Source of the DNA: Candidatus Culexmicrobium cathedralense
GTDB lineage: Archaea > Thermoproteota > Methanomethylicia > Culexarchaeales > Culexmicrobiaceae
Assembly (NCBI GenBank): GCA_025061115.1
Contig: JANZKC010000005.1
Location: 1 to 35,655 of the forward strand
Reading direction: 5' to 3'
Length of the DNA: 35,655 nt
Part shown: piece by piece, positions 1,311 to 32,415 of the stretch
Layout: every line of letters begins with the position of its first letter
Numbering within the stretch: position 1 is the stretch's first letter
Notes under the pieces: model-generated
Seen by the model: only the letters and a program-made list of their open reading frames with translations
Told to the model about the DNA's origin: nothing
The model's database searches: none
Program-made: the position numbers and the translations under genes

Positions 1311-2862
1311 TTATTTTAACAATATATCTTTTATTTGCCATTTAGGTTCAGTACTATATATTTTCCTCCTCCTCATGGCGTGGTCTTCAAAATACTTGAT
1401 GTGATCCCATACATCGATGACAATGCCGTACTTCTTGTTGGGCCATGGCCTAGTTATTCTCCCTACTCTTTGAAGCGCCCTTGTCGATGATTTCCCCCCT
1501 CCGGCCAAGATCAGGGTTCTTAAAGCTGGGAGGTCTAGTCCCTCATCGGCCAGAGTTGTCGCTATTATTCCATCTATTTTCTCCCTCCTTACAAGATCGA
1601 ACATTAAAGCCCTAATGTCTGGATCGACCTGCCCATAGAGAAATGCTACTTTCAATCCTAGTTTCTTACATTCCTTCTCAATTAATTCCCCATGTTTTAT
1701 CTCTTTAACTAGGATCATGAATGGTTTAGGGGCCTTGTAAGCTATTCTTGCTATTAGCTGGTTTCTTATCGGATCCTGGAAAACAGCTTTCTTAACCTTG
1801 TTGAACAACCATGGGCCTCCCCGTTTACCCTCGAAATCCTTGGCATACTTGGGGAAGTAATGTGCGAAATAGATCTTGACAGGAACAAGATAGCCTTTCT
1901 CTATTAGTTCGCTACTAAGAATCCTCCTTGGAACCATATCCCCATAGCATGCATAGATATCTAGGTCTCTGCCGTCATCGCGCCAAGGTGTAGCGCTTAA
2001 GGCTAGTCTTAAAGCGTTAGGGTTAGACATGGACGTGTACCATACTGTTCTAGCAGGTACATGTTGGCATTCATCCATTATTACTAGGTCTGCTTTCCTA
2101 TAGGTTTCATATAGTTTCAGCTTGTCTTCAACATCTGTTTCTTCAAGCAAATACTTTACTTCCTCGTCAAGGCTCTCTTCAGGGTATTCGTATGCCTCAT
2201 ATGTTCTTATAGCCCGGTAAAGTGTTTGAACAGTACAGCACACTACGTTTCTATCTATTTGGAAATAGTCTTTGTTGACTAGTCCCGCCTCCACACCGTA
2301 CTTCCTGAACCTGTCCCTAGCTTGAATCAGCAGGTCCGTGTTTAGAGATAGGAAAAACGTTTTCCCTGGCTTAAGGATCTTATGTAGTGCTACAGCTACT
2401 TCAGTTTTGCCACTTCTGGCCTGCCCGGGGGTGTTTATAGGTAAACTTTCCCCCCCTAGGCAGGTTTCCAGTGCAGGCTTGGAGTGTTGCAGCTCCTTGG
2501 AATTCTAGTTGCTTAAGTATCGATATTAGTGCTTCAAGCTGGTATTTGCGTAGAAACTTTGCCTCGTAAAGATCATAGTCTAACTCCCTATATTTAGCTT
2601 CAACACGCCCCATTTTCAGGTTTTCAGCTATCCTCTTAACCCTAACGGTTAGGCCTCTGAAGGTTGTGAAGCTTAGTTTTGAAGGGTTAAACCAGTACCG
2701 TCGTATCATAATGTACTCGTATGCTTTAATGTCAGGGTTCCACTTCTTAAGCTCATATGCGAAATACTTATCTGAAAACATCTTTAACGCTTCATACTTG
2801 GCCGGGTCATCTAGGAAAACTGTAACGTAGTTTCCATGGAAAACTGCTTTCACGTTTTCCAC
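1311..2862 (-). CDS. Superfamily 2 DExH helicase (XPB/Rad25-like), intron-split: exons 2466-2862 and 1311-2413, 499 aa
   Basis: Q motif LRKYQ; Walker A ACTG|SGKT restored by splicing; motif Ia FFLSLNTDLLIQ; DECQH; SAT; ADEGLDLP; QRVGR. Confidence 0.9.
2414..2465 (-). other. 52-nt archaeal bulge-helix-bulge intron in the helicase mRNA
   Basis: Central helix CUGG/CCAG; 3-nt bulges AAA and AAG; intron stem CCUGCCU/GGGCAGG, GGGGG/CCCCC, GUUUA/UAAAC. Cutting after the second nucleotide of each bulge gives ACU GGA AGU GGC AAA ACU (TGSGKT). Confidence 0.88.
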
Positions 2863-18775: not shown

Positions 18776-19306
18776 GTGTTCGGGTGGCTACAAGCCTTTG
18801 TCGAACCGTTTGTAGAAGCTCTTGGAGGAGTATTCTATCATGACACTGCAATGTATATTATTCCTCCGACAACGGAGCCGATTTATGCAACATACGTTCC
18901 GGAGCCTAGAACGAAAGTCCTAGTAATAGGGGTTACGTTTGGAACACCCCGGGAATACGATCCGGCAACAGGGACTTTCGGGCCGGAAGTTGAAAGCATG
19001 AATATTGGATTCTGGCATGCTACCAGGGGGAAAATGGATTGGCATTGGGATCCGCTGGTGAAAAGTATTTTGATGACTAATCCTTATCCTCAGCTTATAT
19101 GGTGTGATGCTAGCAAACCCTATGAGTTGCTGATTGTTAACGATACTTCCACAACCGTTGCTGTTGACGTTACTTTTTGGGTTATAAGGTTCCCTAAGAG
19201 GACATGGTGCCCTGTTCTTGGAAGGTACTGTGACCCGGAGGAGCTTTGGAACAAGTACATGAACGGAATAGTGGAGTTCTTTGTGAAACAAGCTGTTGAA
19301 ACATGA
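18776..19306 (+). CDS. Putative structural protein (single jelly-roll-like)
   Basis: Beta-rich; YELLIVNDTSTTVAVDVTFWVI. Confidence 0.55.
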   Translation: MFGWLQAFVEPFVEALGGVFYHDTAMYIIPPTTEPIYATYVPEPRTKVLVIGVTFGTPREYDPATGTFGPEVESMNIGFWHATRGKMDWHWDPLVKSILMTNPYPQLIWCDASKPYELLIVNDTSTTVAVDVTFWVIRFPKRTWCPVLGRYCDPEELWNKYMNGIVEFFVKQAVET

Positions 19307-25531: not shown

Positions 25532-26542
25532 ATGGACTGGTCCCAAGTTCTAAAAACAGCACTTGAAGAAGCCAGAAAGTACTGGTACCAATATTCTGAA
25601 CCATTAACCCTAAGAGGGCTCTTCTATATCCTGGTCTCCAAGAACGTTATACCTAACACTAAATCAGCATATAAAAGGCTAAGCGCCGTACTGGCCAAGG
25701 CACGGTATAGAGGGGAGTTTCCATGGTATTATTTAAAAGATGTTACTAGAAAAGTACAGTATCTTGAACCATGGACCTACTATCCTACAAAACCTCTTAG
25801 CGAAGAAGAAATATTGAAGATAATTGAAGACTATGTTAACAACCACTTCGACGTCTCAATTAACCCATGGGATGATCAGCCAAAAAGAGTGATCGTGGTT
25901 GTTGAGAAAGAGGCCCTAGGAGATCTTGTTGCTGCATTTGTGAAAGAAGTGTTTAAACATGGAGTTTACCAGGTAAGAGTTATTAAAGGATATGATAGTG
26001 CAACGGATGTTAAGAAGGTAGCTGAAGATGTTGAATCAATAGATAGTAGAGGTAAAATACCGGTGGTCCTTCAGCTAGGAGACTATGATCCATCGGGAGA
26101 AGACATTGTAAGGGACTTCCGTGAAAGAGTTAAAATGCTTTCTAATGTTGAAAACATTGTTTTCGAGAAAGTAGCTGTAACAGCAGATCAAATATTGGAG
26201 CTGAACCTGCCACCTAAGCCGGAGTCGGCAGATGAAATTGCTAAGCTAAAGAGGGATCCAAGATATCCTAAGTACGTTGAGAAACTTAAGAGGGATCCTA
26301 AGCTTAGACCGCTGGTTGAACAGTATGGAGGACTAGTCCGTGTAGAGCTCGATGCGCTAGTAGCTTTAAGGCCTGAAGACTTCAAGAAAATCCTCAGAAA
26401 AGCCATAGAGAAACACTTTGACTGGAACATTTACAATAATGTTACCAAGAGGAAAAAGGAGGAACTAGGGAAAAAAGCAGAGGAATTCAAGAAGCAAACC
26501 ATGGAGAACCTGAAGAAACTACTTAAGAAGCAAGGTGAGTAA
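25532..26542 (+). CDS. Toprim-domain protein of the Topo VI-A/Spo11/JetD-like group
   Basis: TLRGLFY (winged-helix Tyr), VVVEKEAL, GDYDPSG, VELDAL. Confidence 0.85.
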   Translation: MDWSQVLKTALEEARKYWYQYSEPLTLRGLFYILVSKNVIPNTKSAYKRLSAVLAKARYRGEFPWYYLKDVTRKVQYLEPWTYYPTKPLSEEEILKIIEDYVNNHFDVSINPWDDQPKRVIVVVEKEALGDLVAAFVKEVFKHGVYQVRVIKGYDSATDVKKVAEDVESIDSRGKIPVVLQLGDYDPSGEDIVRDFRERVKMLSNVENIVFEKVAVTADQILELNLPPKPESADEIAKLKRDPRYPKYVEKLKRDPKLRPLVEQYGGLVRVELDALVALRPEDFKKILRKAIEKHFDWNIYNNVTKRKKEELGKKAEEFKKQTMENLKKLLKKQGE

Positions 26543-26988: not shown

Positions 26989-27154
26989 TTCCGCTTCTAA
27001 CTTCTCCACGGTCCAATATAGACTTTCCTTTAAGCCCAAGATCCCACATGTGCCCGCAGAACCTGCATTTAGCATAGTAATGTAGGGAACCCTCAATAAT
27101 CTCAACATTTGACCTTCCGCAAACAGGGCACCTAAGCTTCACTTCTCCCACCAT
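26957..27154 (-). CDS. Zn-ribbon protein
   Basis: CPVCG...CRFCGH. Confidence 0.7.
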   Translation of the reverse strand: MVGEVKLRCPVCGRSNVEIIEGSLHYYAKCRFCGHMWDLGLKGKSILDRGEVRSGNGEKILCFKM

Positions 27155-27861
27155 GCGGGCCTAATTGTTTTCCTGTAAACCGTTACCCCGTATGATTCAA
27201 GAAGCTCTATTAGCTTAAGCGTCTGCTCCAGAGACGGCTCGGGCAACTTGTTGTTGTAGTTGTCGTATCCTACATAGACGAATTCAGGGTTTATTTCAGC
27301 TATTTCCTTGGAGAACTTGTAAACGTCTCTTATCTGTATTATTGGCTCAACTGAAACCATTAGCCTTACGTTCCCATTAACCATTCTAATCCACTTCATT
27401 GCGTTAATTCTCCTTGAAGGAGAAGGAGCATTGCTTATACCGTATGCCCAATATACTTTGTCGAAGTCCGTTTCTACGGTAGCACCTAAAATAACGTTAT
27501 CCATGTGTGAAAGCTCATCCAAGAACTCAAAGTACCTAGCAGGGTTCTTTGTTAGGAAAAGAAAAGTTGTTTCAGGGAATTTCCTAATATGGCTGATAAC
27601 CGTTTCAATCCAGAAGTCTTTAACCCACCAGCCCCACATATCACCCATGTCACTGACGAAGATAAATTCACCTGGTTTAAACTTTTTCCTAAGCTCTTGA
27701 TGATGAAACTTAGGCTTAAAACCTTCACTATACTTCCTAGTGTTTTTAAGCCTAGTCTCAACAAGTTTCCTAGCCCAACAGTATTTACATAAATGTAGGC
27801 AACCGGTAATAACATTCCATGTCTTTGTCACTTTATGGAACATTCTTGACCTCATTGCCAT
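27139..27861 (-). CDS. Phage Gp37/Gp68 (DUF5131) radical-SAM-like protein
   Basis: TWNVITGCxxxCxYCWA, IFVSDMGD, FLTKNP, VSVEPI. Confidence 0.85.
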   Translation of the reverse strand: MAMRSRMFHKVTKTWNVITGCLHLCKYCWARKLVETRLKNTRKYSEGFKPKFHHQELRKKFKPGEFIFVSDMGDMWGWWVKDFWIETVISHIRKFPETTFLFLTKNPARYFEFLDELSHMDNVILGATVETDFDKVYWAYGISNAPSPSRRINAMKWIRMVNGNVRLMVSVEPIIQIRDVYKFSKEIAEINPEFVYVGYDNYNNKLPEPSLEQTLKLIELLESYGVTVYRKTIRPAWWEK

Positions 27862-30455: not shown

Positions 30456-30499
30456 TTATATGCTAGTATACTGTATATATACTTTCCGGAGGTGATATT

Positions 30500-31042
30500 G
30501 TGAAAAGAAGAAACCCAGAACAAGAAGAGGCAATAATAGAGGTAACGTTAATACCGGAAACATGGATTATAGCGCCACTTGTAACAGAGCAGCAACTTAG
30601 AAGATGGTATGAGAAAGGATGGATTAACGATGAAGACCTCCACCTGGACCGTGCATTTCCCAGATCAGCTGATGGTAGGCCGATAATTTTCAAGCTTTGG
30701 CTGCTGGCTCCTATGAAGCGTGCATGTGATAAGCTAGGGTATTCCAGGAGCGTGCTTAACTTCTCAATTATTGACGACCACGGGTTCCCTGTCGAATATG
30801 TTGAAATACCTGACCAGCCTTTAAAATACCGTAGAGTCATATTGGGGCCTAAGCAGTCAACGGAGTATTTCGAATACATTGACAGCACCTATGAGTTAAA
30901 GTTCAGGGTTAAAACCAGATACCCCAAGGAGTTCTGCGAAATCCTCAACGCAGCTGGAAGAATAGGTTTAATGGCGAGATCAGGTAAGGGATTCGGAAAG
31001 TTCAGAGTTTCCTTCAAGGTGGAAACACTTAAAAACCAATAA
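30500..31042 (+). CDS. Stand-alone RAMP-superfamily protein (Cas7/Csm3-like)
   Basis: N-terminal strand IEVTLIPETWIIA; PRSADGRPII..WLLAPMKRA (compare Csm3 PxIPGSSLKG); FEYI...ELKFRV; C-terminal Gly-rich loop GLMARSGKGFGKF; GGAGGTGA RBS. Confidence 0.75.
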   Translation: MKRRNPEQEEAIIEVTLIPETWIIAPLVTEQQLRRWYEKGWINDEDLHLDRAFPRSADGRPIIFKLWLLAPMKRACDKLGYSRSVLNFSIIDDHGFPVEYVEIPDQPLKYRRVILGPKQSTEYFEYIDSTYELKFRVKTRYPKEFCEILNAAGRIGLMARSGKGFGKFRVSFKVETLKNQ

Positions 31043-31074
31043 CCCCTTTTTTCCCCCATACGTGTAGGGAATGT

Positions 31075-31093
31075 ATCCCCTTCCCGAGGGGAT
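31075..31093. other. GC-rich hairpin ATCCCCT-TCCCG-AGGGGAT bordering the periodic array
   Basis: 7-bp perfect stem. Confidence 0.65.
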
Positions 31094-31099
31094 GAACCC

Positions 31100-31418
31100 C
31101 AACGCACAATATCAACACAGTATTTGGCAATTTTCATTTAATATTTCGCAATTTGCATCACGTATCTAACATCACCCATCATAAAATGATAACACTTCAT
31201 CTCGCAACCACCATACTTAATTCATAATTAGCAACAGTAACAGGCAGATTCCAACCAACAACTAACACCCACCATTCACAGATTAAAACGCACAAATATT
31301 AACCGACAATACTAACCAACCATATTTAAAGGCACAGCAATAATTCACAATCTGACAAATACCAACTCTCAATTACAACCATGAAAAGAACAACCCGCAA
31401 CCTCAAAAACCAAATATA
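31100..31418. ncRNA. Non-coding 7-nt periodic array (H-A-N5, about 45 units); candidate guide RNA for the adjacent RAMP
   Basis: A at position 2 in 20/20 units from 31100 and 20/20 units from 31279. Position 1 is C in about half the units and never G. No ORF of 60 aa or more covers most of it. Confidence 0.7.
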
Positions 31419-31419
31419 A

Positions 31420-31680
31420 TTATTCCTCCTTCCTCTCATAATCCATACATGCCGGATCAGTTTCCAAAACACAGTTAAACCTGTAATACGGACATTCCGG
31501 TGTTAAAAACTTCCTGCATGAACCACAGCATTTAAACTTCATTCTCTCGCTTCTAGGTAGACTCCTCCAAACCCATATTGTTTTAAACTTCTCATCTAAG
31601 GCCTTAGGAAGCTCCTTTTCCAAATCCTTCAAAACATCGTAAATTATTTGCCAGAAGAAATCAACATCATCCTTAGACAT
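31420..31680 (-). CDS. Small Cys-rich protein
   Basis: CCGSC...C...C...ACMDYE; similar to the C-terminal Cys domain of 32415-33983. Confidence 0.7.
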   Translation of the reverse strand: MSKDDVDFFWQIIYDVLKDLEKELPKALDEKFKTIWVWRSLPRSERMKFKCCGSCRKFLTPECPYYRFNCVLETDPACMDYERKEE

Positions 31681-32415
31681 TTAGATCACCTCCTCAAGGG
31701 TTTTCTGCCTTAAAATATCCCTAGCGTAGATTCTCCTATTAGCCACGAAGAAGGCAGATCCTTTACTCTTCATCTTGCTTTCAAGCTCAACGAATCTGCG
31801 GAAGAAATCAGGGAACCGGGCCCTTAAAACCATAAGCTCCTTCTCACTCATGAAAACACCGCAGCAGCATGTCTCCTTTACACCGATCCTATACCATGGA
31901 GGATAGGGTAAACCATGCTCCTCAATATATTTCTCCACCTGTTCATCAGACCAGTCGATAATGGGGCAATAACCCCATGCAAGAGCGTCCCTCTTAAATA
32001 TTATTTGAGGTAGATTGGCTCGTCTAGGAGACTCGCTACGCCTTAACCCTAAAACCTCTGCTTTAGATCCTTTAAACCTCTTAACATACTGTATTATCGG
32101 TTTGAGTTTTAAATGGTAGCAACACCACCTCCTAGTTTTCTTAGGGAAACCATACTTCAAAACCATGTCTTCAAAACTTATTTCCGGCCTTAAAACCACC
32201 AGATCCCATCCAAGACTCTTAGCAACCCTTCTAACATATTCTTCAACACCGGGAAGCATAATAGTAGTGTCAACGTGTAAAACCTTAATCTCGAGGTCTA
32301 GTCCCCTAGTATCCTCTATGAAATAATGCGTAGCAACCAAACTATCCTTGCCACCGCTGAAACATGGAAAAGCATACTTAATCCTATACTTCACAACAAA
32401 ATCCCTAGGCCTCAC
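31681..32415 (-). CDS. PAPS reductase family (PP-loop) protein
   Basis: FSGGKDS, VDT, RWCCYHLKLKP, GLRRSESPRR, PIIDWS, C-terminal Cys cluster. Confidence 0.9.
   Translation of the reverse strand: MRPRDFVVKYRIKYAFPCFSGGKDSLVATHYFIEDTRGLDLEIKVLHVDTTIMLPGVEEYVRRVAKSLGWDLVVLRPEISFEDMVLKYGFPKKTRRWCCYHLKLKPIIQYVKRFKGSKAEVLGLRRSESPRRANLPQIIFKRDALAWGYCPIIDWSDEQVEKYIEEHGLPYPPWYRIGVKETCCCGVFMSEKELMVLRARFPDFFRRFVELESKMKSKGSAFFVANRRIYARDILRQKTLEEVI

Follow-up and report, generated by a model that had tools for sequence, protein, structure and literature searches.

What is a solitary gene for a Cas7/Csm3-like RAMP protein doing on an archaeal contig, and what is the non-coding DNA that follows it, in which an A recurs at every seventh base? 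The question is raised by a contig of Candidatus Culexmicrobium cathedralense (assembly GCA_025061115.1, contig JANZKC010000005.1), which we analysed in its entirety as a single stretch of 35,655 bp (hereafter the window; contig C5 of a 1.98-Mb assembly of 25 contigs). The RAMP gene lies on the plus strand at 30500-31042 and the phased array directly 3' of it, ending at 31418. Here we draw on the sequence of the array, its conservation beside homologs of the gene, a structural model of the protein and comparisons with known RNA-guided systems, and we conclude that an archaeal mobile element here probably carries, in gene and array, a minimal non-CRISPR, VIPR-like module that is guided by RNA and uses a heptanucleotide code. 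On our best reading, each unit has a fixed (C)A and five programmable bases, a guide comprises about 20 units behind a 5' handle, and the module has no accessory gene.

The phased heptanucleotide array

The region that follows the gene (31043-31418; 376 nucleotides, nt) is non-coding and A/C-rich, with 146 A, 107 C, 87 T and 36 G. Its identity autocorrelation peaks only at lags 7, 14, 21 and 28 (z = 2.5, 2.7, 4.2 and 3.5, respectively, against 1000 first-order Markov simulations of the region), a signal that arises because the region holds two blocks with an A at every seventh base. Block 1 (31100-31239) and block 2 (31279-31418), both on the plus strand, each comprise 20 units of 7 nt of the form [C/A/T]-A-N5, with the invariant A at 31101+7k in the first and at 31280+7k in the second (k = 0-19). 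Between them lies a 39-nt junction (31240-31278, plus strand) that shifts the phase by 4; within it A recurs briefly in yet another, third phase (31239+7k). The first position of the unit is C, A or T (C in 11/20 units of block 1 and 10/20 of block 2), the second is A in 20/20 units, positions 3-7 are variable, and all 20+20 units are distinct. Block 2 ends 1 nt from the stop codon (31420-31422) of a convergent minus-strand gene. A preliminary description of the locus, made from the sequence alone, had reported phased 7-mers 3' of the gene; the resolution into two blocks of exactly 20 units makes the phasing more marked than was noted there.

Elsewhere in the window the longest run of a single base at any stride from 2 to 12 is 13, and mononucleotide shuffling of the region (20,000 rounds) produces runs of up to 16, with none (0) reaching 20. 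The rest of the assembly has stride-7 runs of 13-17 on contig C1, which are A-rich and lack both the CA motif and a nearby homolog of the RAMP gene. Tandem Repeats Finder reports nothing in the array region; the five variable bases differ from unit to unit and therefore leave that program blind to the array, and the lack of a match thus marks the array as a case of phasing rather than a classical repeat. A second period-7 spectral hotspot lies in the window at 18838-19089 (power 4.13 vs 4.01 for the array), inside the coding open reading frame (ORF) at 18776-19306 on the plus strand, and it has period-3 power as well.

Conservation of the array beside the gene

We collected 48 homolog loci, 45 of them on metagenome contigs and 3 in metagenome-assembled genomes labelled Desulfurococcales, Nanopusillus and Aerophobetes, and counted stride-7 runs within 1.2 kb 3' of the gene at the 43 loci with at least 300 nt of downstream sequence. 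A run of at least 10 is present at 33/43 loci (29/39 without four near-duplicates), compared with 7/43 at the best of six other strides and 2/40 at stride 7 upstream of the gene. For runs of at least 12 the count is 23/43 downstream at stride 7, against 0 at the other strides and 0 upstream. In all 33 of the runs of at least 10, read along the gene strand, the base that recurs is A or C. Consecutive perfect CANNNNN units number 85 in L034, 82-83 in L037, 69-70 in L048 and 62 in L036, loci whose proteins are only 46-47% identical to the 180-residue protein of the window. The periodic arrays that had been anticipated beside homologs are indeed there, on the same strand and directly downstream, in homologs down to 38-47% identity.

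Ten loci (L017, L018, L023, L025, L029, L030, L035, L042, L044 and L045) show no run of at least 10, and L017, L030, L044 and L045 also show no sign of the leader motif described below. At L020, which is more G+C-rich, the stride-7 runs between 840 and 1340 consist of C and are 13-16 long, and the base after the C is A, C or G instead of a fixed A; this array may be a motif variant. The RAMP gene is the only one common to 44 loci, around which no family of neighbouring ORFs extends beyond close relatives, and neither a cas gene nor a CRISPR array was found beside any of the 44. In IMG/VR at least 115 stretches carry 13 consecutive CA at stride 7, yielding 132 arrays in the matches listed, none of which has at least 80% distinct units (best 0.77); these arrays are ordinary heptamer repeats.

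How the arrays evolve

Unit-level alignments of 15 pairs of related arrays, which are not independent of one another, give 33, 2, 50, 44, 31, 39 and 41 mismatches at unit positions 1 to 7, and the gaps in them are whole units. Between 86 and 100% of the N5 blocks in each array are distinct. Within N5, G makes up only 8-16%, position 4 is a pyrimidine in 70% of cases, and positions 3 and 4 have base preferences of their own. Array and gene DNA are 73% vs 91% identical between L004 and the window and 78% vs 97% between L009 and the window, so the arrays diverge faster than the adjacent gene; where gene identity falls to 71-74%, the arrays can no longer be aligned. Taken together, the constant A, the whole-unit gaps and the variable N5 indicate that selection keeps the phase and the A, as well as the C in one clade, and leaves the other five bases free.

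L004 carries 24+17+21 units, with a longer middle block where the window has its junction. Contigs from four other vent/sediment sequencing runs, which may overlap the source samples of the homolog loci, carry variants of the array, and among the variants listed none of the 27 substitutions within the blocks (0/27) affects the invariant A. Other vent runs also yielded contigs with a 14-nt (i.e., two-unit) insertion at 31169 and, at the block junction (31236-31243), a 63-nt replacement of 6 nt. Finally, the arrays of L034, L036 and L048 have a run of five N5 units in common, part of which is also present in L037, although these arrays otherwise differ; this unchanged run suggests that the content of the units matters.

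The RAMP protein

The gene encodes 180 amino acids from a GTG start codon, 3 nt 5' of which the sequence reads as a Shine-Dalgarno-like GGAGGTGAT (30488-30496, plus strand). The two motifs singled out in the preliminary description, DGRPII and GLMARSGKGFGKF, are both present in the translation. An AlphaFold2 model built with the family alignment (pLDDT 91.4, pTM 0.85) has a predicted core resembling an RNA-recognition motif (RRM), arranged beta1-alpha-beta-beta-alpha-beta, in which beta1 spans residues 11-19, a beta-hairpin at residues 108-127 corresponds in position to the thumb of Cas7 proteins, and the glycine loop GLMARSGKGFGKF at residues 156-167 precedes the last strand. Against the PDB, Foldseek finds 85 structures at E<=0.001, the best of them Cas7 proteins from type VII and type III systems (best E 2.7e-7), Csm3 and Cmr subunits. 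Structure alignment to representatives with VIA gives Z 10.2 for Csm3, with a root-mean-square deviation of 2.8-2.9 over 137-145 residues, and Z 10.0 for a Cmr subunit; the top three (Z 10.2, 10.2 and 10.0) align over 137-150 residues, and 19/19 top rows are CRISPR RAMPs. Among predicted viral structures there are four matches at E<=0.001, including a siphovirus "Cas system-associated RAMP" and one protein from Los Azufres archaeal virus 2. Model, Foldseek and VIA thus uphold the RAMP fold first proposed from the sequence, of the Cas7/Csm3 type with a C-terminal glycine loop and a hairpin in the thumb position.

A sequence profile search of the PDB found 0 matches, Pfam and PHROGs gave no significant match to the protein (Pfam only a sub-threshold match to lipocalin), and the Pfam RAMPs family (PF03787) matches neither the protein nor anything in the host assembly. 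A word-indexed search returned 46 relatives of 164-230 amino acids, none with a Pfam domain, and when the full profile was run over 1.84 billion cluster representatives just 44 proteins came back, which makes the family a rare one. No relative of the protein was found in IMG/VR with two different alignments, and neither the protein nor two distant relatives gave a useful match in tblastn searches of a phage collection. Across the family alignment P19, T21, W22, HLDRAFPR (48-55) and E125-Y-I-D-x-T are invariant or nearly so, as is a C-terminal loop of the form G-x7-G-x-G-K/R-F.

A three-copy model built with the same alignment is consistent with polymerisation. It reaches an ipSAE of 0.43 vs 0.00 for the best of three controls, the mark being 0.42, a value reached by 20/30 solved homo-pairs and 1/23 solved single chains. 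The trimer runs agree in at least 85% of contacts, and the partner pLDDT is at least 81. In the modelled head-to-tail interface, one copy contributes residues 27-66 and 92-100 and its neighbour residues 18-22, 108-112, 128-131 and 154-169; the interface makes use of the most conserved motifs of the family, namely residues 18-22, 48-59 and 128-131 and the glycine loop.

Leader, handle and strand

Several elements lie around the end of the gene and ahead of the first unit. The TATA-box-like TTAAAAA at 31029-31035 (plus strand) overlaps the end of the gene and stands some 27-33 nt before the leader fold, where it may serve as the promoter of the array RNA, and a T6 run just 3' of the stop codon (31047-31052, plus strand) is a possible archaeal terminator of the RAMP gene. 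The leader or "handle" itself (31062-31105, plus strand) has a minimum-free-energy fold consisting of an outer stem, an internal loop (AAUG / AAC) and a 9-bp hairpin; it holds AATGT...GATGA motifs, and its 3' end lies inside the first unit. The hairpin that had been noticed after the gene is real and forms part of this predicted stem-internal loop-stem fold.

Comparable leaders recur across the family. At most homolog loci the gap between stop codon and first unit shows, by eye, a T run, often an element like TTTAAA or TTAAAT, and then GATGA. Within 130 nt of the stop codon GATGA occurs on the gene strand at 26/38 loci and on the opposite strand at 10, the shuffle expectation being 3.6. It is commonly followed by a hairpin and then (T)GA, and the stems differ between loci while the pairing is kept. 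L039 (1990-2720) has four such handles in series, of the form (GC)TTGATGA-hairpin-(T)TGAAAG, with stems that are different but paired, and each is followed by about 20 CA+N5 units in modules of 167-283 nt; it is the clearest case of separate guide-like RNAs within one array.

In a box C/D-type kink-turn, RUGAUGA and CUGA boxes are joined by a stem, with tandem G-A pairs and a 3-nt bulge, and the whole is bound by L7Ae. Many of the leaders resemble this arrangement in having (U)GAUGA, a hairpin, (U)GA(AAG) and a short outer stem, and the handles of L039-L041 fit the consensus by eye. Rfam, however, gives nothing at the gathering threshold or at E<=10, and the leader of the window has AAUGU in place of GAUGA on its 5' side.

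Leader and array together fold at -37.8 kcal/mol as plus-strand RNA and at -80.1 as minus-strand RNA, and both folds are indistinguishable from their own shuffles (z = -0.7 and 0.4), so the difference between the strands lies in base composition. The weak structure of the plus strand fits a single-stranded RNA meant for coating, and we take the array to be transcribed, presumably in the direction of the gene.

Comparison with known systems

VIPR systems, to which the preliminary description had likened the locus, rest on a minimal RAMP, Vipr, which polymerises on an RNA made of 9-16 YNNGG units with a 3' tail after them, each 5-nt repeat taking up one protomer (10.64898/2026.04.26.720920; 10.64898/2026.04.26.720927). 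As set out in these two reports, Vipr clamps GGY and the NN bases read double-stranded DNA with one base skipped, all seven VIPR types are pentanucleotide (with the variants NNNGG, YNNNG and NNNNG), and the systems silence competing mobile elements (10.64898/2026.04.26.720920; 10.64898/2026.04.26.720927). In both VIPR, as thus described, and the locus studied here, a small single-RRM RAMP with glycine loop and thumb, lacking cas genes and CRISPR arrays and found mostly on mobile elements, stands beside tandem short units on the same strand, in which fixed bases alternate with hypervariable ones and which occur in several array architectures. Having located the VIPR locus of SUSP1 in the phage record, we find its repeats on the strand of the vipr gene, as here.

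There are also differences. The unit is 7 nt long here and 5 nt in VIPR; the fixed part is (C)A rather than GGY or another 3-of-5 pattern, and the variable part has 5 nt rather than 2. The structured element stands 5' of the units on the gene strand (the presumed RNA strand), whereas VIPR has a 3' tail; there is no conserved accessory (vap) gene, whereas VIPR is a two-gene locus; an in-phase series has about 20 to 85 units, compared with 9-16 in VIPR; and the hosts here are vent archaea. The earlier characterisation of the locus as like VIPR in kind with a different period and motif was apt in this respect, the types described in the reports being all pentanucleotide and the units here 7 nt. 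With neither a pentanucleotide unit nor a cas operon or CRISPR array, the locus is best called VIPR-like and belongs to neither VIPR nor CRISPR-Cas.

At the level of sequence the relation to Vipr is suggestive rather than proven. Aligned by hhalign against a profile of 36 relatives of the SUSP1 Vipr, the family profile gives a probability of 61% and E 8e-5 over 119 columns, including the glycine loop. The Vipr family of the published work was itself reached by PSI-BLAST from X1U2U4 (10.64898/2026.04.26.720920).

The second comparison is with the Cas7 backbones of class 1 CRISPR-Cas systems (Csm3, Cmr4 and type VII Cas7), which provide the best structural matches (Z 10.2, Foldseek E 2.7e-7). 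Cas7 subunits polymerise on RNA and display it in 5-nt segments, and the variable block here likewise has 5 nt. The period is 7 here and 6 there; the locus lacks a repeat-spacer array, a partner such as Cas5, Cas6, Cas10 or Cas11 and any match to Pfam RAMPs, and its "guide" would be interrupted by a fixed dinucleotide that is encoded in the DNA.

The third comparison is with the Evo-PIN survey of periodic DNA, which reports other 5-mers and one period-7 cluster, #156,623, with 4 fixed and 3 variable bases, an inverted copy and no protein (10.64898/2026.10.21.760802). That cluster, so described, shares with the present arrays a non-coding nature, a 7-nt period and discovery through periodicity; the arrays here differ in having 2 fixed and 5 variable bases, no inverted copy and an adjacent RAMP gene. 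A literature search on heptanucleotide or 7-nt repeats with Cas7, RAMP or Vipr gave nothing relevant, and the VIPR papers and the periodicity survey make no mention of the present family, supplementary tables aside; those of the VIPR papers might list members of it.

A proposed mechanism and its implications

We propose that the gene product is a single-RRM RAMP of the Cas7 type and that the DNA downstream of it would be transcribed in the direction of the gene from a promoter of its own. The resulting RNA would begin with the structured GAUGA-hairpin handle and continue as an unstructured, G-poor chain of 7-nt units, on which RAMP protomers may polymerise head to tail, one per unit. A pocket between neighbouring protomers would hold the constant (C)A, and the five variable bases would be presented as short stacked segments, much as Cas7 backbones present segments of 5 nt. 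Together these N5 segments could read a nucleic-acid target through a gapped (i.e., noncontiguous) code. About 20 units would make up one guide, and long arrays would be guides in series, either in one phase or divided by phase shifts or handles. By analogy with VIPR, the likely use would be the silencing of competing mobile elements. That the array is transcribed and on which strand, that one protomer sits on each unit, that N5 engages in base pairing, and of what kind the target is, we infer.

If this is correct, the gapped RAMP code would not be unique to the 5-nt repeats of VIPR, and hydrothermal-vent archaea would harbour a separate RAMP lineage with a 7-nt unit and five programmable bases per protomer. 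This would bear on the origin of Cas7 backbones with their 5-nt segments, on whether the code is denser (5/7 bases specified vs 2/5 in VIPR) and on whether a thermostable single-protein scaffold is on offer. The case also shows that real systems can escape searches for periodicity when these are tuned to 5, 18 and 60-79 nt. A bolder form of the proposal, which we consider slightly less likely than not, is that the family represents a second, independent noncontiguous RNA code, with 7-nt steps, a (C)A clamp and 5-nt guide segments written in the genome instead of acquired as spacers. In structure it would be intermediate between VIPR (2-nt segments) and class 1 CRISPR (5-nt segments on a continuous spacer), and its kink-turn-like 5' handle would perhaps recruit host L7Ae for the RNA ends.

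Weighing the proposal against alternatives

Several results weigh against the proposal of a VIPR-like guide module. The sequence link to Vipr becomes marginal when the single SUSP1 Vipr sequence is used (hhalign probability 7.8%); with HMMER the family neither reaches Vipr nor is reached from it; and since the profile search of 1.84 billion representatives returned just the 44 proteins, it did not pull in the large Vipr family. The oligomer score lies only narrowly above the mark, and in such a model the pass may stem from likeness to solved Cas7 filaments. Under a permissive rule of a hairpin plus GA, leaders (29/97) do not separate from background GATGA sites (121/589). None of the sequencing runs listed as holding the locus is an RNA run. 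A guide of 20 units would specify 100 bases, far above the need of any guide we know of.

The search for targets belongs to the same side of the balance. The preliminary description had looked to N5 blocks with skipped bases for matches in host and viral sequence, and none above control emerged. The host assembly was searched together with the flanks of every locus (2.17 Mb, arrays masked) for N5 blocks allowing 0-4 skipped bases, with two exact units as the seed. No target emerged, the top scores of 15-17 equalling those of the reversed-unit control; the single higher score came from part of a homologous array that had escaped masking. Five conserved units, taken as an exact gapped pattern, gave 0 matches in IMG/VR with skip 1 and 0 with skip 2, although that collection, in which no relative of the protein was found, is hardly a promising source of targets, and one five-unit pattern with skip 1 and up to 2 mismatches gave 0 matches in 401 genomes of the host's phylum. 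Substitutions between related arrays carry no codon-phase signal under any skip rule (p = 0.23-0.83), and a coding-potential test of the predicted targets gave no clear signal.

In one alternative, the RAMP coats the array RNA in a 7-nt register without any guide function, the ribonucleoprotein serving as a decoy or sponge (e.g., an anti-CRISPR mimic of the Cas7-crRNA backbone) or as a structural or regulatory filament, and N5 varying as only (C)A matters. The fold, the linkage, the invariant A and the oligomer fit this equally well, the host has a CRISPR-cas system of its own, and both the lack of a target and the roughly even mutation of N5 without codon phase fit it too. It is harder to square with the N5 runs that persist unchanged across the differing arrays of L034, L036, L048 and partly L037, which suggest that content matters, with the base preferences peculiar to positions 3 and 4, or with the modules of about 20 units that carry their own handles in L039 and look like separate RNAs, not one sponge. 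We regard it as unlikely, yet as the rival to be taken most seriously.

A guide module as proposed here has also to be set against the idea that the array acts as DNA, as a phased protein-binding or bendable tract (an origin, partition or packaging site) whose neighbour is unrelated or binds DNA. CA/TG steps spaced by 7 bp would come back into register after three units, or two helical turns, the genes on either side of the array converge, and the runs holding the locus include no RNA, all of which would suit such a site. Against it, the neighbouring protein folds like the RNA-binding Cas7, the array is on the gene strand in 33/33 runs of at least 10, and a double-stranded site would need neither the strand asymmetry (G 8-16%) nor a strand-specific structured leader; moreover, iterons are normally near-identical, whereas the units here are 86-100% distinct. 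We consider this reading improbable. Less probable still is a stray or degenerate CRISPR-Cas Cas7 that uses host CRISPR RNAs beside an incidental periodicity, for although the closest solved structures are Cas7 subunits and the host assembly has CRISPR arrays and cas1, there is no cas gene or CRISPR array on the contig or beside the 44 loci, PF03787 matches neither protein nor assembly, and the array is kept with the gene across a family whose gene occurs in 0/61 other genomes of the host's class.

The host and the mobile-element setting

The host assembly carries an archaeal-type RNase P RNA (173.9 bits; gathering score 84), and within the 62 genomes of the host's class the RAMP gene occurs in this one alone (1/62). 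The preliminary description had stated that the genome holds no cas operon or CRISPR repeat. This is true of the window, where neither a CRISPR array nor a cas gene was found, and false for the assembly, in which two contigs bear CRISPR arrays built on one common repeat, with 73 copies on C1 and 16 on C4, and which also has a cas1. The host CRISPR-cas region lies outside the window, on contig C1 (about 285.3-343.3 kb and 345182-345976) and on contig C4. None of the host CRISPR spacers (0/84) matches the contig of the window.

The suggestion that the contig belongs to an archaeal virus found no support either: among the 21 contig ORFs scanned there is no match to a capsid or terminase and no structural gene was recognised, so "mobile element" is the safer label. 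A tRNA search found none, and many ORFs of the contig lack matches. The contig carries a helicase gene (phrog_16; 1311-2294, minus strand), a gene for a topoisomerase-like protein (phrog_6247; 25532-26542, plus strand) and a gene for a DUF5131/radical-SAM protein (27139-27861, minus strand); these amount to replication and modification content of the mobile-element type.

Convergent with the array on the minus strand lie an 86-residue cysteine-rich ORF without family matches (31420-31680, with its stop codon at 31420-31422) and a gene for a PAPS-reductase-domain protein (31681-32415; PF01507, E 4.9e-28). The same pair of genes is also found 3' of the array in L004 and L009.

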